A stretch of DNA of 64,000 nucleotides from Patescibacteria group bacterium (GTDB lineage: Bacteria; Omnitrophota; Gorgyraeia; Gygaellales; Profunditerraquicolaceae): NCBI GenBank assembly GCA_035506195.1, contig DATJPV010000036.1, forward strand, positions 16,100 through 80,099, in the 5' to 3' direction. Positions 3,967 to 52,781 of the stretch are shown in pieces. The translations under genes and the position numbers were made by a program. Each line of letters starts with the position of its first letter. Position 1 is the first letter of the stretch. The notes beneath the pieces were generated by a model. That model had not been told where the DNA came from, ran no database searches, and saw only the letters and a list, made by a program, of their open reading frames with translations.

Positions 3967-4037
3967 GCGAGAGTAGTTCAGTGGCAGAACACCAGCTTCC
4001 CAAGCTGGATATGGGGGTTCGATTCCCCTCTCTCGCT
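3967..4037 (+). tRNA. tRNA-Gly (anticodon CCC)
   Basis: Cloverleaf by eye: acceptor GCGAGAG/CTCTCGC, anticodon stem CCAGC/GCTGG, loop TTCCCAA, T-loop TTCGATT, discriminator U. No encoded CCA. Confidence 0.85.
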
Positions 4038-14862: not shown

Positions 14863-15215
14863 AAAAGCACCCCAAGATCGAACGCAGGCTGCACCCCCGC
14901 GTTGAAAAAACATTGCCGTTGAATATCGTCGCCAACGGCTATGACCTGGAAACTACCACCAAAAACGTCTCTTGCGTGGGCGCGTATTGCCATATCAATA
15001 AGTACATTCCCCCTTTTACCAAGATCGCAGTACGGCTTATCTTGCCTATCACCCGCGGCCTGACCCGCAAGACCTATGATGTTGAGTGCAGGGGCGTGGT
15101 GGTAAGGACCGAAGATCAGACCGACGGCGGTTTTAACGTCGCCATATTCTTTAACGGCATCAAGGACGCCCAGCGTCAAAGAATATCCCAGTATATACAT
15201 CAGTTCTTGCCGTAG
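14859..15215 (+). CDS. PilZ-domain protein
   Basis: ERRLHPRVEK...NVSCVGAY PilZ-like motifs. A start at 14859 is favoured over 14814 because of the ATGA coupling. Confidence 0.7.
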   Translation: MKKHPKIERRLHPRVEKTLPLNIVANGYDLETTTKNVSCVGAYCHINKYIPPFTKIAVRLILPITRGLTRKTYDVECRGVVVRTEDQTDGGFNVAIFFNGIKDAQRQRISQYIHQFLP

Positions 15216-15229
15216 TCTTCCGCGCCTAG

Positions 15230-15763
15230 ATGGGAAAAATAGTACAGCGCCTACCGGTTAAACTCTTTACAGGCTTGATCTTCCAGGACAGCGCAATCTT
15301 CGAACAGGCCAAGGCTGTTTTAGCCAGGCATTTTGGCAGGATCGACCTTCAAAGCAGTATACTCCCCTTTATACACACCGACTATTACGAAAAAGAATTC
15401 GGTACCGGCCTTAAGAGGGCGTTTGTAAGTTTCGCCCGCCTTATCCCCGCCGAGGAGCTTAGCCGCATCAAGGTTAAAACCAACCAGATCGAACGCAAGT
15501 TCTGCCGCGCCGAGTCGCGCCGCATCAATATCGACCCCGGCTACCTGGACCTGGGCAAGCTTGTCCTTGCTTCTACCAAAGATCACGGGCACCGCATATA
15601 TCTTGGCCGCGGCATCTATGCGGAGGTAACCCTTTTTTTTCAGGATAAGACATTTCAGCCCTGGCCATGGACGTATCCGGACTATAAGACCGCCGGCTAC
15701 ATCGCCGTCTTAAACCAGATGCGCGCCTGCTATGCCGGTCAGATCAAAACGCGGAGCCGCTGA
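15230..15763 (+). CDS. Hypothetical protein (possibly DUF4416-like)
   Basis: Conserved-looking 177-aa ORF with no catalytic motif recognised. Confidence 0.45.
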   Translation: MGKIVQRLPVKLFTGLIFQDSAIFEQAKAVLARHFGRIDLQSSILPFIHTDYYEKEFGTGLKRAFVSFARLIPAEELSRIKVKTNQIERKFCRAESRRINIDPGYLDLGKLVLASTKDHGHRIYLGRGIYAEVTLFFQDKTFQPWPWTYPDYKTAGYIAVLNQMRACYAGQIKTRSR

Positions 15764-31902: not shown

Positions 31903-31975
31903 GGGCCCATAGCTCAGTGGTTAGAGCAGGTGACTCATAATCACTTGGTCCGGGGTTCGAATCCCTGTGGGCCCA
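31903..31975 (+). tRNA. tRNA with CAU anticodon; by similarity to E. coli ileX most likely tRNA-Ile2 (lysidine), otherwise elongator tRNA-Met
   Basis: Acceptor GGGCCCA/TGGGCCC. D-arm and anticodon arm (GGTGA CTCATAA TCACT) differ from remembered ileX (GGCGA CTCATAA TCGCT) at one compensated base pair in the anticodon stem. Confidence 0.8.
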
Positions 31976-32006
31976 GGATCGTGTATATACGGGTGAAACG
32001 TTTTTG

Positions 32007-32083
32007 GGGCGCATGGCTCAGCTGGTTAGAGCGCCACACTCACATTGTGGAGATCGAGGGTCCGAATCCTTCTGCGCCCACCA
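32007..32083 (+). tRNA. tRNA-Val (anticodon CAC), CCA encoded
   Basis: Acceptor GGGCGCA/TGCGCCC, anticodon stem CCACA/TGTGG with loop CTCACAT, T-loop TCCGAAT, 3' ACCA. Confidence 0.8.
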
Positions 32084-33237: not shown

Positions 33238-33602
33238 CCGGAGGGAGCGGAACGTGGCTACTCCCAGATTATACGGGAGAGGAAAGTCCGGGCTCCGCAG
33301 GGCAACGTAGTGGGTAACGCCCACATGGCCAACATAGGCCAATGATTAGAGCTACAGAGACGGATTACCCCGTTCACGATTTGCCTTTAGTTTGCGAAGC
33401 AAAGTAAAGGCAGTGGGGTATGTGAAACGAGCAATCTCTACGTGGAGCAAGGCCGAATAGGAGACCAGGGGTTGCCCATCCCGTTATGAGTCTCGGGTAG
33501 GCTGCTTAATCCCGGCGGTAACGCCGGGCTTTAGAGGAATGGCCACTTTAGGAAGCGGTATTCGCATCCCACACAGAACCCGGCTTATTCTGTTCCGTCC
33601 GG
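33238..33602 (+). ncRNA. rnpB: RNase P RNA (bacterial type A)
   Basis: Universally conserved GAGGAAAGTCCGGGCTCC (P4) plus ...GGGTAGGCTGCTT... and 3' ACAGAACCCGGCTTAT elements. P1 pairing CCGGAGGGAGCGGAAC / GTTCCGTCCGG. Ends are approximate. Confidence 0.85.
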
Positions 33603-44615: not shown

Positions 44616-44933
44616 ATGCTAGAGGACCGCAGGTGTTTTTTCCGTTTCCCCGCAACCGTGCCGTTGCGCTACCAGGATAACGACGGCGGTGTGCAGGGAT
44701 GGGGAGAAACGCACGATATCAGCGCCAAGGGGATCGGTTTTTTCACCGATCGAGAGATGCCGCCTGACACAAGCCTTGATATATGCCTGCAGGTCCCCGA
44801 TAGGGAAGATGGAATCTGCGTAAAAGGCAGTATCGTATGGTCGCGCCTGGTTGCTCCGCAGCGCTACCGGGTCGGCGTAAGCCTGGAAAAAGTGGATTTC
44901 ATCAGCATGTCGCACGTGTTGCGTTTGGCCTAA
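44616..44933 (+). CDS. PilZ-domain protein
   Basis: RRCFFRFPATVPLRYQ...DISAKGIGF PilZ motifs. Confidence 0.7.
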   Translation: MLEDRRCFFRFPATVPLRYQDNDGGVQGWGETHDISAKGIGFFTDREMPPDTSLDICLQVPDREDGICVKGSIVWSRLVAPQRYRVGVSLEKVDFISMSHVLRLA

Positions 44934-45079: not shown

Positions 45080-45412
45080 ATGCGAGATTTGGTATTCAAA
45101 AACCTGACTTCCAGCGACCACAAACGCAGGATCGTTGCCAGTTCCGAGGTAGCGGACCGGCAAGGCGTGCGCAGCACTATCCACAGGCATTTTGTGTGCA
45201 TGGTCAAAGAAGTCAAGGATGCCAACATCCCCAAGCCGAACCCGTATTTATATGTGCTCAAACAACGCAATACTAAAGAACAAACGGAAAAGTTTTTTTG
45301 CCGGATAAAAGGAAGCCTTTATGCGGTCAACAAAGGCAAGCTCTTCCTGATTATTTTTACCCACTCCTTAAAGATCTGCCTCAAGCCCGTTCCTCAGGAT
45401 TTAATGGCGTAA
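45080..45412 (+). CDS. Hypothetical small protein in AT-rich spacer (may be non-coding)
   Basis: 110-aa ORF in a low-GC region with a weak ribosome-binding site and no recognisable domain. Confidence 0.25.
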   Translation: MRDLVFKNLTSSDHKRRIVASSEVADRQGVRSTIHRHFVCMVKEVKDANIPKPNPYLYVLKQRNTKEQTEKFFCRIKGSLYAVNKGKLFLIIFTHSLKICLKPVPQDLMA

Positions 45413-45706: not shown

Positions 45707-46306
45707 ATGGGGAAGTTGAAACTGGCGCTGTGCGCGGCGATGGCATTTGTGCTTGTGACCGGCGGCATGGCGTTTGCAGGGGAAAAGGTGTTGTTTGGAT
45801 TTGAGAAGGATATGGGCGGTTGGGAAATCCCCGACTGGGCAATGGAAAAGGAAGACTACGTAGGCACTAAGATCGAGCTATCGACCGCAGTTTTCAAAGA
45901 GGGAAAGTCTTGCCTTAAGCTCGACACCAAGTTCCCCGGAGGGAAATGGACTGCGGCTTATGTTGAGATCCAGCAATACTTCGATTGGACCGCTTACAGC
46001 GCGGTTGCGGTTGATGTCTATTTGCCGGAAACAGCACCGGTCGGCCTGAAATCAAAAATGATTTTGACCGTCGGCGAATCCTGGGCATGGGTCGAAATGG
46101 CACGCAGCACCGCTTTGGAGCCGGGAAAATGGACGACCATCACCGCTAATATCATGCCGGCTAGCACCGATTTTCGCGCTACGGTTGATGACGCCTTCAG
46201 GAAGGATATCCGCAAGGTCGGCGTCAGGATCGAATCCAATATGAAGCCCGTATATGAAGGGCCGGTGTATATTGACAATTTCAGATTGATTGAAGTAACC
46301 AAATAA
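45707..46306 (+). CDS. Secreted hypothetical protein, beta-sandwich/CBM-like
   Basis: Signal peptide MGKLKLALCAAMAFVLVTGGMAFAG. Aromatic-rich beta pattern (WEIPDW, WTAAYVEIQQYFDW). No catalytic motif. Confidence 0.5.
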   Translation: MGKLKLALCAAMAFVLVTGGMAFAGEKVLFGFEKDMGGWEIPDWAMEKEDYVGTKIELSTAVFKEGKSCLKLDTKFPGGKWTAAYVEIQQYFDWTAYSAVAVDVYLPETAPVGLKSKMILTVGESWAWVEMARSTALEPGKWTTITANIMPASTDFRATVDDAFRKDIRKVGVRIESNMKPVYEGPVYIDNFRLIEVTK

Positions 46307-46317
46307 CGAAGAGGGAG

Positions 46318-46902
46318 GTGAAACACATGATCAAATATGTAAAGATAATGATGTTGATTGGCTTAGGGCTAACGCTTGCGTATGCGCAAGCTTTCGCAGG
46401 GACCTCAACTGCTACAGCTACTGTTACGGCAACCGTGCCTTCAGTAACCACGGTTTCTCTTGCCCGTGATACCGGTTCAGCTACGCGCGGTTCAGCTAGC
46501 ACGATTATCTTCGATAAGCTGGATAGCCAGGACACGCCCGGTGGTGATGCGGGGTTGATGTACGCACCGTATCGTACTACCGAAAACGGCAAGAACTGGC
46601 ATTTCGCCAAGGTTGCGGCTAATGGCTCAACGTTGACATTAGCGCTTACCGTAAGCGGGACCGTAGGAGGCCAGCCGCTGTCGAACCTTTTGAAGGTTTA
46701 TTGCGGCGGTTTCTACCTGACAGGTTCTACGACCTTTATTAGCGGAACCAATTCAGCGGACTGGGAATTTGCCAGCGGTTGGCAGAGGACCTTGACTCAG
46801 GCGTTCATCGGGACAGTGCCGTTTAACTACCAGTTGAACGTTTCTGCCGTTGGTGCCGGTTCTTACTCCGGGTCGGTAACGTTTACCTTGACGACAACGT
46901 AG
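46318..46902 (+). CDS. Secreted fimbrial-subunit-like protein (spore-coat-U / DUF4402-like), putative major subunit
   Basis: Signal peptide ending AFAG. Mature N-terminus has an alternating TSTATATVTATVPSVTTVSL donor-strand-like segment. C-terminal GSYSGSVTFTLTTT strand. Followed by a stem-loop. Confidence 0.5.
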   Translation: MKHMIKYVKIMMLIGLGLTLAYAQAFAGTSTATATVTATVPSVTTVSLARDTGSATRGSASTIIFDKLDSQDTPGGDAGLMYAPYRTTENGKNWHFAKVAANGSTLTLALTVSGTVGGQPLSNLLKVYCGGFYLTGSTTFISGTNSADWEFASGWQRTLTQAFIGTVPFNYQLNVSAVGAGSYSGSVTFTLTTT

Positions 46903-46929
46903 TTATTCCTGCGTTGATTGTATGCATTT

Positions 46930-46966
46930 AATAGCTTGGGGCGGGTTTATCCTGCCCCAAGCTATT
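46930..46966 (+). terminator. Perfect 13-bp-stem hairpin between subunit genes 1 and 2 (no T-tract; attenuator/RNA-stability element)
   Basis: AATAGCTTGGGGC-(11 nt)-GCCCCAAGCTATT, ending 1 nt before the ATG at 46967. Confidence 0.5.
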
Positions 46967-47527
46967 ATGGCATATAAAGAAGGGTCGCTATTGAAGAAAC
47001 TAACATATTTTGCAGGTGCGCTGCTGGTATGTTTCTTGTTATACGCCCAGGCAGAGGCATTGGATTACAAAACTGACGATATCTCCGCCTCGGTGGAAGT
47101 ACTGCCTACCTTTGGTATCTCTCTCGATAATCTCAACCTTTATTTCGGCCTTATTCAGCCAGGCTCCACAAAAATATTAGGCGAGGGCACATTTTTCAAC
47201 CAGATCCACTGCCGTTCTAACTCCGGCCGGCCATGGTTCCTGAAGGCGCAGGTTGTTTCCCTGTCCCTGATGGAAAAACCGTATAAGGTGCCCGCCGGAA
47301 ATCTTAAATGGAAGGTTACGCAATGCACCGGTTCTGCGCAGCCGGCAGGCGGCTACGATTTTCAGTCGCTTACCGAAGAGCCGCTCCTTATGTATGCAAG
47401 TCAGGGAGATGACGACTTTGGCAAAGACGTAGTGCTATCTATGCAATATAGCCTGCAGTCGCCGTCCGATGCGCCGGCAGGCACGTATTCCGGCCAGATC
47501 GTTTTCACCATGGCAGAAAGCCCTTAA
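46967..47527 (+). CDS. Secreted fimbrial-subunit-like paralog 2
   Basis: Start moved to MAYKEG because the upstream part of ORF 46922 is the hairpin. Signal peptide ...YAQAEA. Alternating SASVEVLPTFGISL N-terminal segment. C-terminal AGTYSGQIVFTMAE. Paralogous to subunits 1 and 3 (shared CRS.NG...W.LK block). Confidence 0.5.
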   Translation: MAYKEGSLLKKLTYFAGALLVCFLLYAQAEALDYKTDDISASVEVLPTFGISLDNLNLYFGLIQPGSTKILGEGTFFNQIHCRSNSGRPWFLKAQVVSLSLMEKPYKVPAGNLKWKVTQCTGSAQPAGGYDFQSLTEEPLLMYASQGDDDFGKDVVLSMQYSLQSPSDAPAGTYSGQIVFTMAESP

Positions 47528-47530
47528 AGA

Positions 47531-48013
47531 ATGCTCAAAAAAATCATTATCTGCGCGTATATGTTGGCTTTGCCGGCGTTGGGGTATGCATCGCTGGAAC
47601 TGACTACCGACCACCGTTCGCTTTTCTTCGGGGCGATGCGCCTGGGGGAAGAAAAGGAGCTTGCGGATTTCGGCGGTTATCATAATGAAATTACCTGTCG
47701 TTCCACCAACGGGGCCATCTGGTACCTGAAGGTCAATCTCTTGCAGCCTTTAAGCTCGGGGGCCGACACGATCCCCGCGGAAAATCTTTCCTGGCAACTG
47801 ACTTGGACTAACGGTAACGGCACCAAGCCCGGCGGGGCGTATACCTATAAAAGCTTCAGCCTCATGCCTGACCTGGTTTACATAAGCGGGCCGGGTGAGT
47901 CGGCCGGCAACGGCATTACCTTGCAGTTCAAGTATTCCTTGAAGATCCCCGAAATTCAGCACAGCGGAGTATATAATGCGACTATCCGCTTTACCCTAAC
48001 GGAGATGTTTTGA
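47531..48013 (+). CDS. Secreted fimbrial-subunit-like paralog 3
   Basis: Signal peptide ...ALGYA; ITCRSTNGAIWYLKV block shared with paralog 2; C-terminal SGVYNATIRFTLTE. Confidence 0.5.
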   Translation: MLKKIIICAYMLALPALGYASLELTTDHRSLFFGAMRLGEEKELADFGGYHNEITCRSTNGAIWYLKVNLLQPLSSGADTIPAENLSWQLTWTNGNGTKPGGAYTYKSFSLMPDLVYISGPGESAGNGITLQFKYSLKIPEIQHSGVYNATIRFTLTEMF

Positions 48014-48786
48014 TGACAAAATATTGCCGTGCCCTGACGTGTATCCTATTGTGGTGTGCTGCGCTTATTGCGGAAGCTTACGCGTTCAGCATCGAGCCGG
48101 GCCGGATCGAACTGGCTATCCCCGCGGGCCGGCAGAGAGGCAAGACCGTTACGATAGACAATCGGGATTCGGATGAGTCCCTGCACTTGAAGATATACGC
48201 TACCGACGTGATCTTCCTGCCCGATGGTACGAATGACTTTCCGCAGGCCGGCGCTACTGCCTGGTCTTGCGTAAAATGGGTGCGGGTAACCCCCGATGAG
48301 ATCGATGTCCCCGCAAAAAAGACACAGACCGTACGCGTCAACGTCACGGTCCCGCAAGGGGCCCAGGGCGGCTATTACGGGATGCTTTTCTTTGAATCCG
48401 GCATGCCCAGCCCCGCTAAGGGGCTCAATATCAACTTCCGCGTGGGCGGCCTTGTCGATGTGTCCGTCCCGGGCACCGAACAGTTCAGCGCCAAGGTCGC
48501 GCATATCAGCCTGTCTAGCCCCAAGAAGATCGAGGTCGGGATCTTTAATGAAGGCAATGTGTTGGTCAGGCCCAAGGGCAAAGTGAAGATCATGGATGCC
48601 CGCGGCAAAAGAATAAAACAAATTGATTTTAACCCCGCGGGATGGGGAGTGCTGCCTCGCAGCCTGCGCAAACTATACGTGGACCTGGACAAGCCTTTGA
48701 CGAGCGGGCAGTATACTATCCGGGTCGAGATCAACTACGGAACGAAGTACTTGTTGGTAGGAGAATCTCCGGTGCAGGTGCAATGA
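48010..48786 (+). CDS. Periplasmic PapD-like chaperone candidate (pattern-based)
   Basis: Signal peptide. The N-terminal FSIEPGRIELAIPAGRQRGKTVTIDNRDSDESLHLKIY matches the PapD-family A1/B1 strand pattern. Two beta-rich halves. TGA overlaps the next ATG. Confidence 0.4.
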   Translation: MMTKYCRALTCILLWCAALIAEAYAFSIEPGRIELAIPAGRQRGKTVTIDNRDSDESLHLKIYATDVIFLPDGTNDFPQAGATAWSCVKWVRVTPDEIDVPAKKTQTVRVNVTVPQGAQGGYYGMLFFESGMPSPAKGLNINFRVGGLVDVSVPGTEQFSAKVAHISLSSPKKIEVGIFNEGNVLVRPKGKVKIMDARGKRIKQIDFNPAGWGVLPRSLRKLYVDLDKPLTSGQYTIRVEINYGTKYLLVGESPVQVQ

Positions 48787-51700
48787 TGGGCGGCCAATGG
48801 CCTAAAATAAAAAAAGTAGCGGCATTGGCAGTGGCGGCGGTTTTTCTTGTCAGCCACTGCGGGTTCGCCGGCGTTGTACCCGGCGCAATGGCCGCTGACT
48901 ATTTGTTCGAGGTCGGTAAGCATTTTTATGACCAGGGCCGTTATGCGGATGCGCTGCATGAGTTCCACAAGGCCCTCATGCTTAACCCCGTCCATAAAGA
49001 GGTGCTGCGGTATATCGGCCTGATCACCGGCGCTGCGCAAGAAGTCTACATGGAAAAAGGCGTGGCGGTAGGCGCCGAGGCTCCTGGCGCGCCCAGGCCC
49101 AAAAGAGCAGTCTCTCCGGTAGGAACCCCTTTGATAACGATGCCCGGGCAGGCGCCTGCCGTGGCGCCTGCCGTGCTGCCAAAGCCGCAAAAGTCCCGGG
49201 AACAGTCTCTGGCCGAAGCCTTGAACGCCCAAGAGGCCGCAGTGCACCCAGGGCCGCAGGTTCCGGCTAAACCCGTGGCGCCTGTTGTTGTTCCCCGCGC
49301 TGCCGTTACTCCCGCACCTGCTGTCCCCGCAGCAAAAGAAGAGGCCGCGGAAACAGAAGGCCCCCGCTTGAACCTGTCCGCCATACAGCCTGCAGCCGTC
49401 AAGAAAGCCGGCGAGATCAGCCTTTTCATCAACGGCCAGGAAGTTTCCCTTGAGGAAGCCGTCCTCTTTAAAGACGGCCAGATCCTGGTGCCCCTGAAAG
49501 CAATAGCCCCTAAGTTATACTATAACCTTTTAGACCTCCAGGGCGGAAAATTTTCGCTCATCAACCCGGAAGGCAAAGCCCGCGATATCGCCGCCGTGCT
49601 TCAAGACGGCAAGCCGATGCTCGATGAAGGGCAGATCCGGGAGTATTTTTCTGCCCGTACCCGTTATGACGCCCAAGCCAAGGCCTTTTACATCGATACC
49701 CAGGCAAGCCAGGGCCTGAAATTGTATGTCCTGGAAAGGCCGCCGGAAGAAATACAGAAAGAAGCCCAGCAGCAAAAAGTCATTGCGCAGGCAACCGCCG
49801 TTCCGGAAAAACCCTCTGTTATCCCCGATGCAGCCCGGCCTTCGCTGGATGTCAGAGGCAACCTCAATTACACGTATTTCAAATATCATGTACTTCCGGT
49901 ATATCACGACCTTTCCTCCAGCCTTTACGGCCGGCTTTACGATTACAACCTGGCTTACCGCTCGGAATATAAAGATATAAACGGGCCGGTAAAGAACGAT
50001 TATACGACCATGTCTTTGTCTAAGCCGGGCATATACTACGGATTTTTCGACCAGTCGGCAGACCTGTATCCGCTGCGCCTGCAGTCAAGCGAGTTTACCG
50101 GCATCAAGGTGGTCCGCTCCCGGAATGAACTGACCAATACGACCCTCTGGGGCGGCCAGACCGAGAATACCATTGCCGGCACAAGCGGTTCGGTCAAGTA
50201 CCTCGGCAAGCTCTTTGGGGCAAGCCAGGATTTTTCGCCTATATACTGGTTGCACCTGAAGGGCGGGATGCTCTACACGGATAATACCGCAGACCAGCCT
50301 TCCCAGGTCGGCACCACTTCATACCCTCGCCAGAATTTCGTTACGTATTCCAACATAGCGCTGCAGCTGCCGCAGAGCACTACGCTTACCCTTTCCGGAG
50401 CCCACTGTTATTATTATCCCGATTATGCCCCCGATAGCGTGGCGATCCAGGATTGGGATTGGCGCATCGGCACGAATACGAATAAGCCGCGCTATAGCCT
50501 CGGTTTTGCGTATGAGAGGGTCGGCGAAAATTACGTCTCTATCGGGGACTCCGGCATTTACCAGGATTACCAGGGATGGGACCTTTACGGCGGCTGGAGG
50601 CCCACTGACCACTGGTCCATATTCACCAACGCCTCGCAGTACCATGATAACGTCTCGGATGACCCCCAGTCGGTTACTACCTATGCATCCAATTACGGCC
50701 TGTCTTCCGCTTACCGCATTACCGGGGACCAGACCGTTAACCTTATGTACAACCATTTTGTTTCGAATCCCGAAGGTCCGGCAGCCGGCCCCAGCGGCGT
50801 CAGCAACGTCTACCGGATAGACTATTTCCTGCCGCTTTTTTATCAGGTCCGCGGCTCGCTGAACTATGCGCTTACTCACTCCGATTCCGGCGGCTCCTTC
50901 GATTACGACGCCCCCAGCATAGGCGGGACCTTGTTCAGGTCGTTTGGCCAGGGCTCCAGCTGGTACCTGAGCCAGCAGGCAACCAATACCCTTTACCGGA
51001 ACCGGCCGGATAGCCACGACTACACCACGACCTTTAACCTGTATTATGCCATCAATCCGCTTTTGGCCGCGTATTTCAACGCCTCCTATGTCAGGAATGA
51101 CACCGATGGGGCGCACTCCACGAATCAGCTCTCCGGTGCTTTAGGGACCAGGTATAGCCTGTTCCCGGATACCACGTTAAGCTTCGAGTACAGCATCAAT
51201 TCGTATGACTTGCGCACGGAAAGAGACCGCTGGCCGAAAAGCTGGTCCATGCTTTTCTACGTAGCGCAAGGGTTCCAGATCAAGACCTCCCCGAATTTCG
51301 GTACGCTTGAAGGCCGGGTTTTCCAGGACCTCAACGATAACGGCAGGTGGGATTCCGGCGAACCCGGGGTGGAGGGAGCGCTTGTATACCTGGACGACAG
51401 GAGAGAGGCGACTACCGATGCGCGCGGGTATTTCAAGATCAACTATATGAATCCGATCCCGCAAAAAGTGTACCTGGACCTGGCGACGGTACCGCCGGAA
51501 TGGATGACCGCCCAGACGGAACAGTGGGTCCAGGTCAAGCCCAGGCGGGCATCGACGGTCGTCTTTGCCTTGCGCAAGGCCGCCGGCATCAAAGGGCGCG
51601 TCTTTGTCGACCAGAACGGCGACGGCATCTTCCAGGAAACGGAAGAGCCGCTGGAAAGCGTGGTCTTAAAACTCTCCCCGGGCGATCATATCACCCAGAC

Positions 51701-51881
51701 CAACGCCGACGGAGAGTTCAAGTTCGAATCCCTGGCGCCGGGGCACTATGCCCTGTCGATCTCCCCGGACGGGATCCCGACGGGTTATGAACTTACCTCC
51801 AAATCGGAAATAAAAATGGACCTGGCCGCAGGGGCACAGGTCCATGATACCAACTTTGCTCTCAAGCTTTCTACCCGCTAA
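48783..51881 (+). CDS. Large outer-membrane protein: TPR-like N-term, Pro/Ala linker, Cu-amine-oxidase-N1-like domain, beta-barrel-like region, two C-terminal CnaB/SdrD-B-like beta-sandwich domains (usher-like domain order)
   Basis: Signal peptide MMGGQWPKIKKVAALAVAAVFLVSHCGFAG. A TPR-like segment (GRYADALHEFHKALMLNP), ISLFINGQEVSLEEAVLFKDGQILVPLKAIAP, about 530 aa rich in alternating Y/S/T/N/G, then two copies of GRVF.D.N.NG..D..E.G. The ORF track also starts in-frame at 48642. Confidence 0.5.
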   Translation: MMGGQWPKIKKVAALAVAAVFLVSHCGFAGVVPGAMAADYLFEVGKHFYDQGRYADALHEFHKALMLNPVHKEVLRYIGLITGAAQEVYMEKGVAVGAEAPGAPRPKRAVSPVGTPLITMPGQAPAVAPAVLPKPQKSREQSLAEALNAQEAAVHPGPQVPAKPVAPVVVPRAAVTPAPAVPAAKEEAAETEGPRLNLSAIQPAAVKKAGEISLFINGQEVSLEEAVLFKDGQILVPLKAIAPKLYYNLLDLQGGKFSLINPEGKARDIAAVLQDGKPMLDEGQIREYFSARTRYDAQAKAFYIDTQASQGLKLYVLERPPEEIQKEAQQQKVIAQATAVPEKPSVIPDAARPSLDVRGNLNYTYFKYHVLPVYHDLSSSLYGRLYDYNLAYRSEYKDINGPVKNDYTTMSLSKPGIYYGFFDQSADLYPLRLQSSEFTGIKVVRSRNELTNTTLWGGQTENTIAGTSGSVKYLGKLFGASQDFSPIYWLHLKGGMLYTDNTADQPSQVGTTSYPRQNFVTYSNIALQLPQSTTLTLSGAHCYYYPDYAPDSVAIQDWDWRIGTNTNKPRYSLGFAYERVGENYVSIGDSGIYQDYQGWDLYGGWRPTDHWSIFTNASQYHDNVSDDPQSVTTYASNYGLSSAYRITGDQTVNLMYNHFVSNPEGPAAGPSGVSNVYRIDYFLPLFYQVRGSLNYALTHSDSGGSFDYDAPSIGGTLFRSFGQGSSWYLSQQATNTLYRNRPDSHDYTTTFNLYYAINPLLAAYFNASYVRNDTDGAHSTNQLSGALGTRYSLFPDTTLSFEYSINSYDLRTERDRWPKSWSMLFYVAQGFQIKTSPNFGTLEGRVFQDLNDNGRWDSGEPGVEGALVYLDDRREATTDARGYFKINYMNPIPQKVYLDLATVPPEWMTAQTEQWVQVKPRRASTVVFALRKAAGIKGRVFVDQNGDGIFQETEEPLESVVLKLSPGDHITQTNADGEFKFESLAPGHYALSISPDGIPTGYELTSKSEIKMDLAAGAQVHDTNFALKLSTR

Positions 51882-51884
51882 CCT

Positions 51885-52106
51885 CTAGTTCTTCGCATAC
51901 GCGACCTGCGTATCCTCCTGTTGGTTCTGTTGCTCGGTTTTTTCCTCCTGCACAATCTGGGTTTGCGTTGCCGTCTCCCGCGCAGGGATGATGATGATGA
52001 CGGTGGCAGTAGCGCTTGCCTGTCCGGCATACACACAGTGGACCGGGATGCACAAAGATGCGAGCGTTGCGAATACGAGTATAAAGACTGTCAGTGTCTT
52101 TTTCAT
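51885..52106 (-). CDS. Small secreted peptide (73 aa) with donor-strand-like ATATVIIII motif and Gln/Glu/Thr-rich tail
   Basis: Strong ribosome-binding site AAGGAGG. Signal peptide ending VYAG. Mature N-terminus QASATATVIIIIPA resembles subunit 1 (TSTATATVTATV). Convergent with the outer-membrane-protein gene. Confidence 0.55.
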   Translation of the reverse strand: MKKTLTVFILVFATLASLCIPVHCVYAGQASATATVIIIIPARETATQTQIVQEEKTEQQNQQEDTQVAYAKN

Positions 52107-52207
52107 CTGTTGCCTCCTTTGAAAGTTTACGCCTTCAGGCCGTAAACTTTCAGGCGCTGGCGAAAGTCGGACGCCCGCCGGGTGTGGGCGTCCGGCTTAC
52201 AACCAGT

Positions 52208-52471
52208 TCACCTTCCGTGGCCGGTGGTGGTACGTTGTCCCAAAACCTCCAGGACCCGACTTTCAAAATCCCTTTCAGACTTTATATTTTCTCCGGTGAT
52301 CCCCAGGTCTTTGACGAAATCGATCACCCAGGCGATCAATTTTGCCCGGGAGACCTTCAGGCCGGTAGAAAAGAGGGCGTCTTTTCCCATCTTGTCCAGG
52401 AAATCCACTTCTTCCCGGTTCAGGAAGGTCACAACGCGCTGATTTTTTTCTTCGGCAAGCACTGCGTCCAT
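52208..52471 (-). CDS. Small cytoplasmic protein, possible ribbon-helix-helix (CopG/Arc-like) regulator
   Basis: GGAG ribosome-binding site. The QRVVTFLNREEVDFLDKMGKD segment fits an RHH beta-strand plus helix. Preferred over the overlapping + ORF 52094..52534. Confidence 0.45.
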   Translation of the reverse strand: MDAVLAEEKNQRVVTFLNREEVDFLDKMGKDALFSTGLKVSRAKLIAWVIDFVKDLGITGENIKSERDFESRVLEVLGQRTTTGHGR

Positions 52472-52726
52472 TTGAATCTCCTATATAATGAAAACGGCCC
52501 CGTTACATTTCTGGGGCCGCATAAAAAACCCTAAAGAGGTCTTTAGGGTTTTTCTCCTCTTTGGCAGCTCAGCCTCCCGCTTGCGCGGGACTGTAGCTTT
52601 GCGCCCCAGCATTACTGCTAGTTAGCCTTTATCAGTAGGTCTTCCTAATTGTCAATTCAAGTATAGCACATTGTGGTAAGATTTCAAGGTTGCCAAAAGA
52701 TTTTTTTTACATTTTACAAATTGCGC

Positions 52727-52781
52727 AAAAAACCCAGACCGTTTCTGGTTTTTTTAAAAACCAGAAACGGTCTGGGTTTTT
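52727..52781. repeat. Perfect 55-bp palindrome = two back-to-back hairpin+T-tract units (bidirectional terminator-like)
   Basis: AAAAAACCCAGACCGTTTCTGGTTTTTTT | AAAAACCAGAAACGGTCTGGGTTTTT; each half contains a CCAGA-CCGTT-TCTGG hairpin. Confidence 0.7.

Follow-up and report, generated by a model that had tools for sequence, protein, structure and literature searches.

A secreted strand-only peptide encoded behind a predicted c-di-GMP-I riboswitch is probably a minimal cap or chain terminator of a pilus-like fibre in Omnitrophota

The window (the whole stretch of DNA analysed here, 64,000 nt) belongs to the Omnitrophota, a phylum whose bacteria are often ultra-small and for the most part uncultured, and carries a pilus-like gene cluster on the forward strand. 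Just upstream of the cluster lies a gene for a PilZ-domain protein of the c-di-GMP receptor family (44616..44933, +; Pfam PF07238, E = 1.2e-12), which is found at the same position in related loci. The first cluster gene (45707..46306, +) encodes a 199-aa secreted galactose-binding-like or CBM-like protein (Pfam Mann_GBD_bact, E = 1.4e-7) that is also present in loci L085 and L086. It is followed by genes for a 194-aa putative major subunit with the mature N-terminus GTSTATATVTATVPS (46318..46902, +), a 201-aa subunit with an N-terminal extension (..DDISASVEVLPT..; 46922..47527, +), a 160-aa tip-like subunit without one (47531..48013, +), a 258-aa PapD-like periplasmic chaperone (48010..48786, +), and an outer-membrane-type protein recognized with Pfam (48783..51881, +), whose start was inferred from an ATGA overlap with the chaperone stop codon. 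No match to the Pfam pilin or SCPU families was found among the cluster proteins. Past the outer-membrane-protein gene and convergent to it stands the gene for a 73-aa secreted peptide (51885..52106, −), the subject of this study.

Donor-strand exchange is the textbook mechanism of pilus polymerization, and the sequence-only reading of this DNA took the cluster to be such a system. Structure models lend that premise support. The AF2 model of the 194-aa subunit (pLDDT 92.4) has a core that begins at residue 44, and residues ~24 to 43, which include the strand discussed below, have no secondary structure in it and form a detached extension. The top Foldseek matches of this model, all of them weak (E ~1e-3), were the Csu pilus, the Pyrobaculum bundling pilus, PapA, CFA/I, FimG, Caf1, and PapE with a bound extension peptide. 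As modelled, the subunit is thus pilin-like with a free, unpaired N-terminal extension, and the chaperone is predicted to have a two-domain PapD-like fold. The 160-aa and 201-aa subunits are paralogues (33% identity, E = 3e-20), but the mature 160-aa protein begins with its first core strand, SLELTTDHRSLFFG, and the ~19-residue extension of the 201-aa subunit is missing, as it is from the 160-aa orthologues and from the ~465-aa proteins of typical loci. Like the first (tip) subunit of chaperone-usher systems, the 160-aa subunit therefore has no donor strand. Since the extension is missing from the tip-like subunit, is carried by the body subunits, and stands alone in the peptide, it is a separable module.

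The outer-membrane-type protein has an N-terminal TPR region, a central region without relatives, and two C-terminal Ig-like domains of the SdrD_B/CarboxypepD_reg type, with a weak additional Pfam match to Cu_amine_oxidN1. Pfam found no usher domain in it (PF00577, FimD/PapC family), and an 18-sequence profile of the protein run against PDB sequences matched only TPR and SdrD-like domains and no usher, so that homology does not bear out the earlier description of this gene as usher-like. Because the protein has no detectable usher relation, the polarity of assembly is assumed by analogy; we do not file the system in the chaperone-usher family, although it appears to work like one.

The peptide gene has an AAGGAGG Shine-Dalgarno sequence 6 nt 5′ of its ATG, making a strong ribosome-binding site, and its full translation is MKKTLTVFILVFATLASLCIPVHCVYAGQASATATVIIIIPARETATQTQIVQEEKTEQQNQQEDTQVAYAKN. 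The N-terminus shows the n/h/c layout of a Sec signal peptide (residues 1 to 27, 52026-52106, −) with a putative cleavage site between VYA and GQ, assigned by the −3/−1 rule and not by a predictor. A lipoprotein reading of the sequence LASLC was rejected, as its position −1 is Leu, which we take to go against the lipobox rule. The mature peptide of 46 aa (51888-52025, −) opens with the donor-strand-like segment GQASATATVIIIIPA (51981..52025, −); as a synthetic peptide, the donor-strand stretch would have the sequence GQASATATVIIIIPARETA. An exact look-up of the peptide in a contig index gave no match, and its homologues came from a protein search: three were found in metagenomes, with 64 to 73% identity and the same synteny. 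Against two of these homologues, dN/dS (Nei-Gojobori) was 0.09 to 0.18 in the mature part and 0.33 to 0.63 in the signal peptide, and the mature peptide is therefore what selection acts on. The ORF is a real gene under selection, and its identification as a secreted peptide in the sequence-only reading stands on the ribosome-binding site, the signal peptide, the homologues and these dN/dS values together.

Among diverged peptides, conservation covers the first 14 to 17 mature residues only (consensus x-Q-A-S/T-A-T/S-A-x-V/I-h-I-I/T-I-P-x-R), and the tails differ in length and sequence. The tail is acidic and rich in Gln, Glu and Thr, and was correctly described at the outset as having no fold-like pattern; across related loci it varies, the exception being a short hydrophobic-x-Tyr motif at the C-terminus. 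With the peptide, none of the Pfam or NCBIfam families reached its curated cut-off. As the sequence-only reading had it, the gene is encoded on the strand opposite to the outer-membrane-protein gene; the overlap with the 3′ end of that gene that it also described is absent here, the two stop codons being 3 nt apart (51885 and 51881). A terminator scan found no terminator between the two convergent genes.

Upstream of the peptide gene, and on the same strand, we found a complete leader and a second small gene. A sigma-70-like promoter (TTGAAA, a 16-nt spacer, TATACT and a TG extension; 52660..52687, −) was called as a pattern match only, with a score of 10/12 in a consensus scan. It is followed by an aptamer (52560..52637, −) that matches the c-di-GMP-I (GEMM-I) family (Rfam RF01051, clan CL00126) over model positions 1 to 87 of 87 with 64.2 bits (gathering score 35; E = 3e-10); the close relatives L001 and L002 have an aptamer of the same score, length and sequence. 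By covariance model, then, this element is a c-di-GMP-I riboswitch, with a predicted response to the ligand. The sequence-only reading made no mention of a riboswitch. The expression platform (52494..52553, −; terminator scan and RNAfold) has two terminator-like hairpins in tandem: T1 (52524-52553, −), with U6 behind it, and T2 (52494-52520, −), with U4. The two-hairpin architecture was seen in the 12 leaders that we folded, and a pattern search recovered the T1 stem, CCCUAAAG/CUUUAGGG, in 36 leaders across the phylum.

The first gene behind this leader encodes a small, highly conserved protein of 87 aa (52208..52471, −) with at least 466 homologues and 23 invariant columns in an alignment of 35 sequences. 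It had no Pfam or NCBIfam match above threshold, and a profile of 35 homologues against PDB sequences returned nothing below E = 0.2 and no ribbon-helix-helix protein. The earlier label "RHH-like" accordingly finds no backing in Pfam, NCBIfam or PDB profiles, and the beta-helix-helix pattern that can be seen by eye hints at a ribbon-helix-helix fold and no more. A structured intergenic region with two hairpins (52120..52205, −; RNAfold, −50.8 kcal/mol, z = −4.3 versus 200 shuffles) separates the 87-aa gene from the peptide gene. From the order of promoter, aptamer, hairpins, 87-aa gene, spacer and peptide gene, we conclude that the peptide is the second gene of a riboswitch-headed operon.

Next, we compared the donor-strand-like segment GQASATATVIIIIPA with 58,907 15-mers drawn from every six-frame ORF in the window. 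Self-matches aside, GTSTATATVTATVPS ranked first (BLOSUM62 score 37, next best 28); it consists of the first 15 residues past the predicted cleavage site of the 194-aa subunit. Anchored on the proline, the two are in register (SATATVIIIIP/TATATVTATVP), with the second half of the strand more hydrophobic in the peptide (VIIIIP) than in the subunit (VTATVP). That the mature N-terminus of the peptide resembles that of the major subunit had been noticed from the sequence, and both the 15-mer ranking and a profile agree with it; as a statement about sequence, the resemblance exceeds chance. The profile was a 14-column HMM (consensus ASSKTITVSATVPS) built from the mature subunit N-termini of other loci only. 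Of 44 small-protein N-termini scored with it, 22 ranked ahead of each of 912 unrelated proteins from the same loci, 17 exceeded the 99th percentile of composition-matched shuffles, and 41 had the match within residues 1 to 10.

The resemblance also tracks individual loci. Pro-anchored pairs of small protein and subunit are in register in L003 (SVTITVGCTIP/THTITVKATIP) and L008 (TSSVAVSFSIP/TTSVTVTATIP), and a further same-locus pair (SMSIQASCTIP/TQSIGVSVTIP) is in register as well. Same-locus pairs were more alike than permuted pairs (P = 0.004 overall; P = 0.046 and 0.07 inside two groups), and in all seven loci of the window type (described below) the peptide was closer to the extension of the first subunit than to that of the second. 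These comparisons indicate, at the level of sequence, that the N-terminal mimicry is general, holding in the window and across loci. A full-length subunit HMM gave no individually significant match to the mature small proteins (maximum 11 bits, with shuffles reaching 10), and the informative test of the subunit profile is that of the N-terminal block only. Two further comparisons were set aside. The idea that the peptide is a mini-subunit whose C-terminal strand copies the last strand of the subunits did not rise above shuffles, and an iterative HMM search that grouped subunits, ~465-aa proteins and small proteins was discounted because signal peptides and profile drift contribute to the grouping.

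We then looked at how the small protein is distributed across genomes. A scan of representative genomes with the 87-aa protein yielded 80 loci, nearly all labelled Omnitrophota. Where the 87-aa protein was at least 58% identical, the next gene almost always encoded a secreted protein of 73 to 120 aa, whose layout in Omnitrophota is a signal peptide, the stretch ..SVSIxVSCTIPAIPGVNAP.., an acidic Gln/Glu/Thr-rich spacer, and ..VKTIYSR. Convergent to it are genes for an outer-membrane-type protein of ~930 aa, a chaperone-like protein, one to three subunits of 200 to 250 aa, and a protein of ~465 aa. In ~55 related loci such a small secreted protein stands beside the outer-membrane-protein gene, and it is convergent in all but L004, where the chaperone and outer-membrane genes lie upstream on the same strand and the small protein is still adjacent. 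The small protein was present in all 48 related loci that have the outer-membrane protein and chaperone cluster (47 by HMM and the variant L026 by eye) and in none of the 25 loci in which a riboswitch-linked 87-aa gene occurs without the outer-membrane protein. It therefore travels with the assembly genes and not with the 87-aa gene. Inside Omnitrophota the block is syntenic with housekeeping genes, with lepB in the same synteny block, which makes adjacency weaker as evidence there.

The HMM of the Omnitrophota small-protein family gave no significant match to the window peptide (hmmsearch, −2.6 to 2.4 bits), and for that reason we do not claim homology of the two groups, only positional and architectural equivalence: the window peptide shares with the family its position after the 87-aa gene, its convergence to the outer-membrane-protein gene, and its architecture. 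Relatives of the window type were reached through the 194-aa subunit, which has 75 homologues; the contigs of seven of these were inspected. All seven share a five-gene cluster made up of three subunits (~190, ~180 and ~160 aa), a chaperone (~259 aa) and an outer-membrane protein (905 to 1,092 aa), and in all seven a convergent small secreted ORF lies directly past the outer-membrane gene. The mature N-termini of these ORFs are AQASASASILIIIPPRED.. (L085), GQATATAMVVIIIPDQK.. (L091), AQDTATANILIIIPPRED.. (L088), ETSSASAQVLIIIPERPD.. (L087), ASATRQAQVLIVIPERRD.. (L090), ASSSQTVQVLIYIPERR.. (L089) and QTANCSAQVVITIPERHG.. (L083). The small ORF overlaps the outer-membrane-protein gene by 4 nt in L087 and by 112 nt in L083. 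Absence or loss of conservation in related loci would have counted against the peptide as first proposed; on checking, a positional equivalent with the N-terminal motif was found in every related locus examined, including L083, L087, L089 and L090, which keep the adjacency of the small ORF in unrelated genomic contexts without the 87-aa gene.

Riboswitches recur at these loci, in front of different genes. The aptamer class lies upstream of the 87-aa homologue in 18 of 20 Omnitrophota loci (Rfam scan), and a regular expression for the core motif found it in 55 of 83 loci. Among the window-type contigs it is located 5′ of the 87-aa gene in L085 and L091, directly 5′ of the peptide gene in L087 and L089, and 5′ of the subunit operon in L083, L088 and L089. 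In these three subunit-operon leaders the 3′ strand of the aptamer is also the 5′ arm of the terminator, the classical ON design. Leaders of the 87-aa/peptide operon and of the peptide alone, unlike those of the ON type, have separate hairpins past the aptamer. Minimum-free-energy folds of the leader always form the terminators. A candidate anti-terminator would arise from pairing of the flank CCAAAGAGG, which overlaps the P1 3′ strand of the Rfam GGC-variant model, with CCUCUUU(A)GG, the loop and 3′ arm of the first hairpin. Such a pairing would fit an OFF switch; complementarity within leaders was not significantly greater than between leaders (P = 0.064). We lean slightly, on the leader sequences, towards opposite control of subunits and peptide, with the peptide made at low c-di-GMP. 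A search for an operator shared by the promoter regions of the pilus operon and the riboswitch operon found none that was convincing, the only 10-mers common to both being GGAAAGGGTG and the RBS-like AAAGGAGTAA. Like other c-di-GMP-I riboswitches associated with surface structures, these have an aptamer above the gathering score placed before surface-fibre genes; unlike in those cases, the controlled genes here encode the 87-aa protein and a strand-only peptide.

FimI is the subunit that ends the type 1 rod and anchors it, and growth stops at PapH and FimI alike since neither permits another exchange (PMC12122975, PMC10673952). On the best reading, the peptide would resemble them as the last, cell-proximal unit, which donates its N-terminal strand to the preceding subunit and accepts none. 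PapH and FimI, however, are full pilin-fold proteins that bind chaperone and usher, whereas the peptide has 46 mature residues and no pilin domain, is encoded on the strand opposite to the cluster (except in L004), and is under predicted riboswitch control. The peptide may thus work like a terminator, but without the pilin fold it is not a member of the PapH/FimI family. TapA of Bacillus subtilis donates its N-terminus to TasA by strand complementation, and the likeness would lie in an accessory secreted protein that offers its N-terminus as donor strand to the major fibre subunit (PMC10151520). TapA, which promotes filament formation, has a complete Ig-like domain of its own and functions with neither a PapD-like chaperone nor an outer membrane; the peptide, in contrast, belongs to a diderm, chaperone-containing system and has no folded domain, its low-complexity mature part of 46 residues being too small for the complete Ig-like fold that TapA combines with its strand.

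Free strands that complement a pilin groove are seen in PDB entries 1n12 (PapE with a PapK-type peptide) and 3bfq (FimG with the FimF donor-strand peptide), both of which were among the Foldseek matches of the 194-aa subunit model. In those two cases the strand is a laboratory reagent, whereas the window peptide would be a genetically encoded natural counterpart. Compared with the archaic (sigma) chaperone-usher pili Csu and CupE and with the TLP-1 fibrils, the system described here has no PF00577 usher and instead has a TPR-plus-barrel-like membrane protein with SdrD_B-type C-terminal domains; the literature searched describes no small strand-only protein in the Csu, CupE or TLP-1 systems.

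In chaperone-usher pili, the N-terminal extension of the incoming subunit displaces the chaperone strand from the groove of the previous, cell-proximal subunit. Against this background we propose that a chaperone-assisted donor-strand-exchange pilus has in this peptide a minimal "subunit" without a groove, which probably acts as a minimal cap or chain terminator of the fibre. Sec export and cleavage of the signal peptide would expose a 14-residue beta-strand that is a copy of the extension of the 194-aa subunit, and we infer that this strand would enter the acceptor groove of the major subunit. If polarity follows that of N-terminal-donor pili, the open, chaperone-capped groove would be that of the newest, cell-proximal subunit. 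Because the peptide has no groove of its own for the next strand, its incorporation would stop elongation, as with PapH or FimI but by means of a bare strand. The capped fibre might then be tethered through the acidic tail and C-terminal Tyr motif of the peptide, or be released. As the second gene of a c-di-GMP-I riboswitch operon, the peptide would couple capping to the level of c-di-GMP. We put the probability that the peptide caps the acceptor groove, with termination as the likeliest form, at about 0.5. A counterpoint is that classical presentation by the chaperone is not open to a peptide that has no groove.

The same strand mimicry can be read in other ways. The peptide could be an initiator or primer like TapA, whose strand makes a free subunit competent for polymerization or nucleates or anchors the first subunit; the mimicry data apply equally to this role, TapA is a documented accessory donor of an N-terminal strand that speeds filament formation (PMC10151520), and a limiting nucleator would suit control by a riboswitch. 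Termination rather than initiation is what we infer, as the locus already encodes a dedicated PapD-like chaperone and, in the 160-aa extension-less subunit, a natural first, tip subunit; in addition, a strand in the groove blocks the site of the next subunit in N-terminal-donor fibres, and the peptide leaders are designed unlike the ON-type leaders of the subunit operons. We consider a priming role decidedly unlikely. A periplasmic inhibitor, in turn, would bind the grooves of free or chaperone-bound subunits and turn them into dead-end capped monomers, so that assembly is off and the peptide is not part of the fibre. Such a role relies on that mimicry too, would profit from the more hydrophobic second half of the strand, which could out-compete subunit strands, and would agree with co-expression with a putative regulator from one riboswitch, but it leaves unexplained both the conserved acidic tail with its C-terminal Tyr motif and the tight end-to-end pairing with the outer-membrane-protein gene, and seems to us quite unlikely. 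Inhibition and termination are alike in that sequence alone cannot separate them.

Two other explanations were weighed. The shared N-terminus might be an export or recognition tag, which a dedicated signal peptidase, the chaperone or the outer-membrane protein would read. In that case the small acidic protein would be a separate secreted cargo, such as a matrix or adhesive peptide, that goes through the same machinery. The motif does follow the cleavage site immediately in both protein classes, an HMM of the small proteins that includes their signal peptides cross-matches the subunits (E ~1e-5), and lepB shares the synteny block. Set against this, the motif is an alternating beta-strand of 10 to 14 residues that ends in Pro and exceeds a signal-peptidase site in length, the tip-like subunits do without it although they share the machinery, and in the AF2 model the segment is detached in the way donor strands are (PMC11494351), all of which makes a tag unlikely. 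A role at the level of RNA, with riboswitch-controlled antisense transcription into the 3′ end of the outer-membrane-protein gene and an incidental peptide, would be in line with the convergent genes, their 3-nt gap in the window and overlaps elsewhere, and the missing terminator between them. This role is highly improbable, being contradicted by purifying selection on the mature peptide, by a protein-level motif that is kept in distant loci with diverged DNA, by the strong ribosome-binding site, and by L004, in which the gene is not convergent and the protein is still kept. Antisense effects may exist alongside a role of the protein.

The cap or chain terminator that we favour can be taken one step further, into a second-messenger-gated chain terminator and release factor, that is, a dispersal switch made from one beta-strand. 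A fall in c-di-GMP would de-repress the 87-aa regulator and the peptide through the riboswitch, the 87-aa regulator would shut off subunit synthesis, and the bare donor strand would cap the last subunit at the membrane channel; since the peptide lacks a groove and would be unable to bind the chaperone, the finished fibre would be detached from the cell. We regard this extension as doubtful. If it were true, the pilus class would be widespread in Omnitrophota and present in other genomic contexts as well, and its fibres could explain free donor-strand-exchange fibrils such as TLP-1 of pond water.

A full-text literature search found no paper that links Omnitrophota with chaperone-usher pili and none that describes this locus or its riboswitch, and in the literature searched we found no natural strand-only pilus component. 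To our knowledge, the known terminators and initiators of donor-strand exchange are all folded proteins. The peptide is best described as a new variation inside the known donor-strand-exchange mechanism, and the locus as an apparently undescribed class of pilus with a PapD-like chaperone and no usher. A natural, nearly bare donor-strand peptide would be the minimal possible regulator of pilus polymerization and a ready-made template for peptide inhibitors of pilus assembly. In the Omnitrophota, the locus is a conserved core assembly system in which a PapD-like chaperone and pilin-like subunits are combined with a TPR-type outer-membrane protein in place of an usher, and it would give c-di-GMP riboswitches a clear output, placed before the subunit operon, the peptide or the small conserved protein according to lineage.

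The operon in which the 87-aa gene (52208-52471, minus strand) is followed by the gene for the secreted peptide (51885-52106, minus strand) is headed by a c-di-GMP-I riboswitch aptamer (52560-52637, minus strand), a feature absent from the sequence-only reading. Aptamers of this class also precede the homologous 87-aa gene across the Omnitrophota, including genomes that lack the pilus cluster. Two strong, terminator-like hairpins lie 3' of the window's aptamer (52494-52553, minus strand). Across the leaders of the related loci L001 to L081, the stem of the first hairpin (CCCUAAAG/CUUUAGGG) is constant phylum-wide in sequence as well as in pairing; the second strong hairpin comes after it. The spacer that separates the peptide gene from the 87-aa gene also holds two strong hairpins (52120-52205, minus strand, z = -4.3), the second stopping immediately 5' of the peptide's ribosome-binding site, and these spacer hairpins may set the ratio of 87-aa protein to peptide. 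Between the promoter of the riboswitch operon and gatC sits a near-perfect 44-nt palindrome (52733-52776; 20-bp stem, T-runs flanking on both strands), which looks like a bidirectional terminator.

Among loci with the window-type cluster, the aptamer also occurs directly 5' of the subunit operon in L083 (9855-9945), L088 (9227-9345), and L089 (9784-9862). In these three subunit-operon leaders the 3' strand of the aptamer doubles as the 5' arm of the terminator, a design of the ON type. L089 carries an additional, second aptamer in front of its peptide gene. At the other end of the cluster, the peptide ORF runs into the 3' end of the outer-membrane-protein gene, with an overlap of 112 nt in L083 (peptide ORF at 15167-15526) and of 4 nt in L087 (15497-15784), and in the window no terminator was found between the two convergent genes; antisense transcripts that overlap at these genes are therefore likely.

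In the typical Omnitrophota small proteins (L003 to L054), which occupy the peptide's position, the Cys of the motif VSCTIP is almost invariant and has no partner Cys within the same protein. Ala takes its place in the subunits, and the window peptide lacks this Cys. In the typical small proteins the Cys could engage in a disulfide between molecules. Among the relatives that databases hold of the chaperone (48010-48786, plus strand), many are tandem-fused chaperones of 500 to 590 aa with two chaperone-like stretches each, and several Omnitrophota loci have two or three separate chaperone copies.

The source MAG is labeled "Patescibacteria group bacterium" at NCBI (the window as a whole; protein P0001). 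In contrast to this label, the locus encodes outer-membrane machinery; its syntenic relatives are all labeled Omnitrophota or are mislabeled Planctomycetales. RNase P RNA and three tRNAs (33244-33600, 3967-4037, and 31903-32080) are ordinary housekeeping RNAs.

Most Omnitrophota loci retain, in the stretch from plsY to the cluster, a conserved 110-aa protein (MRDLVFKNLTSSDHKRR.., 45080-45412, plus strand, in the window) for which no family match was found. Just 5' of the cluster lies a gene for a PilZ-domain protein (44616-44933, plus strand; Pfam E = 1.2e-12), which keeps the same position in several related loci and is a second c-di-GMP input to the pilus locus.
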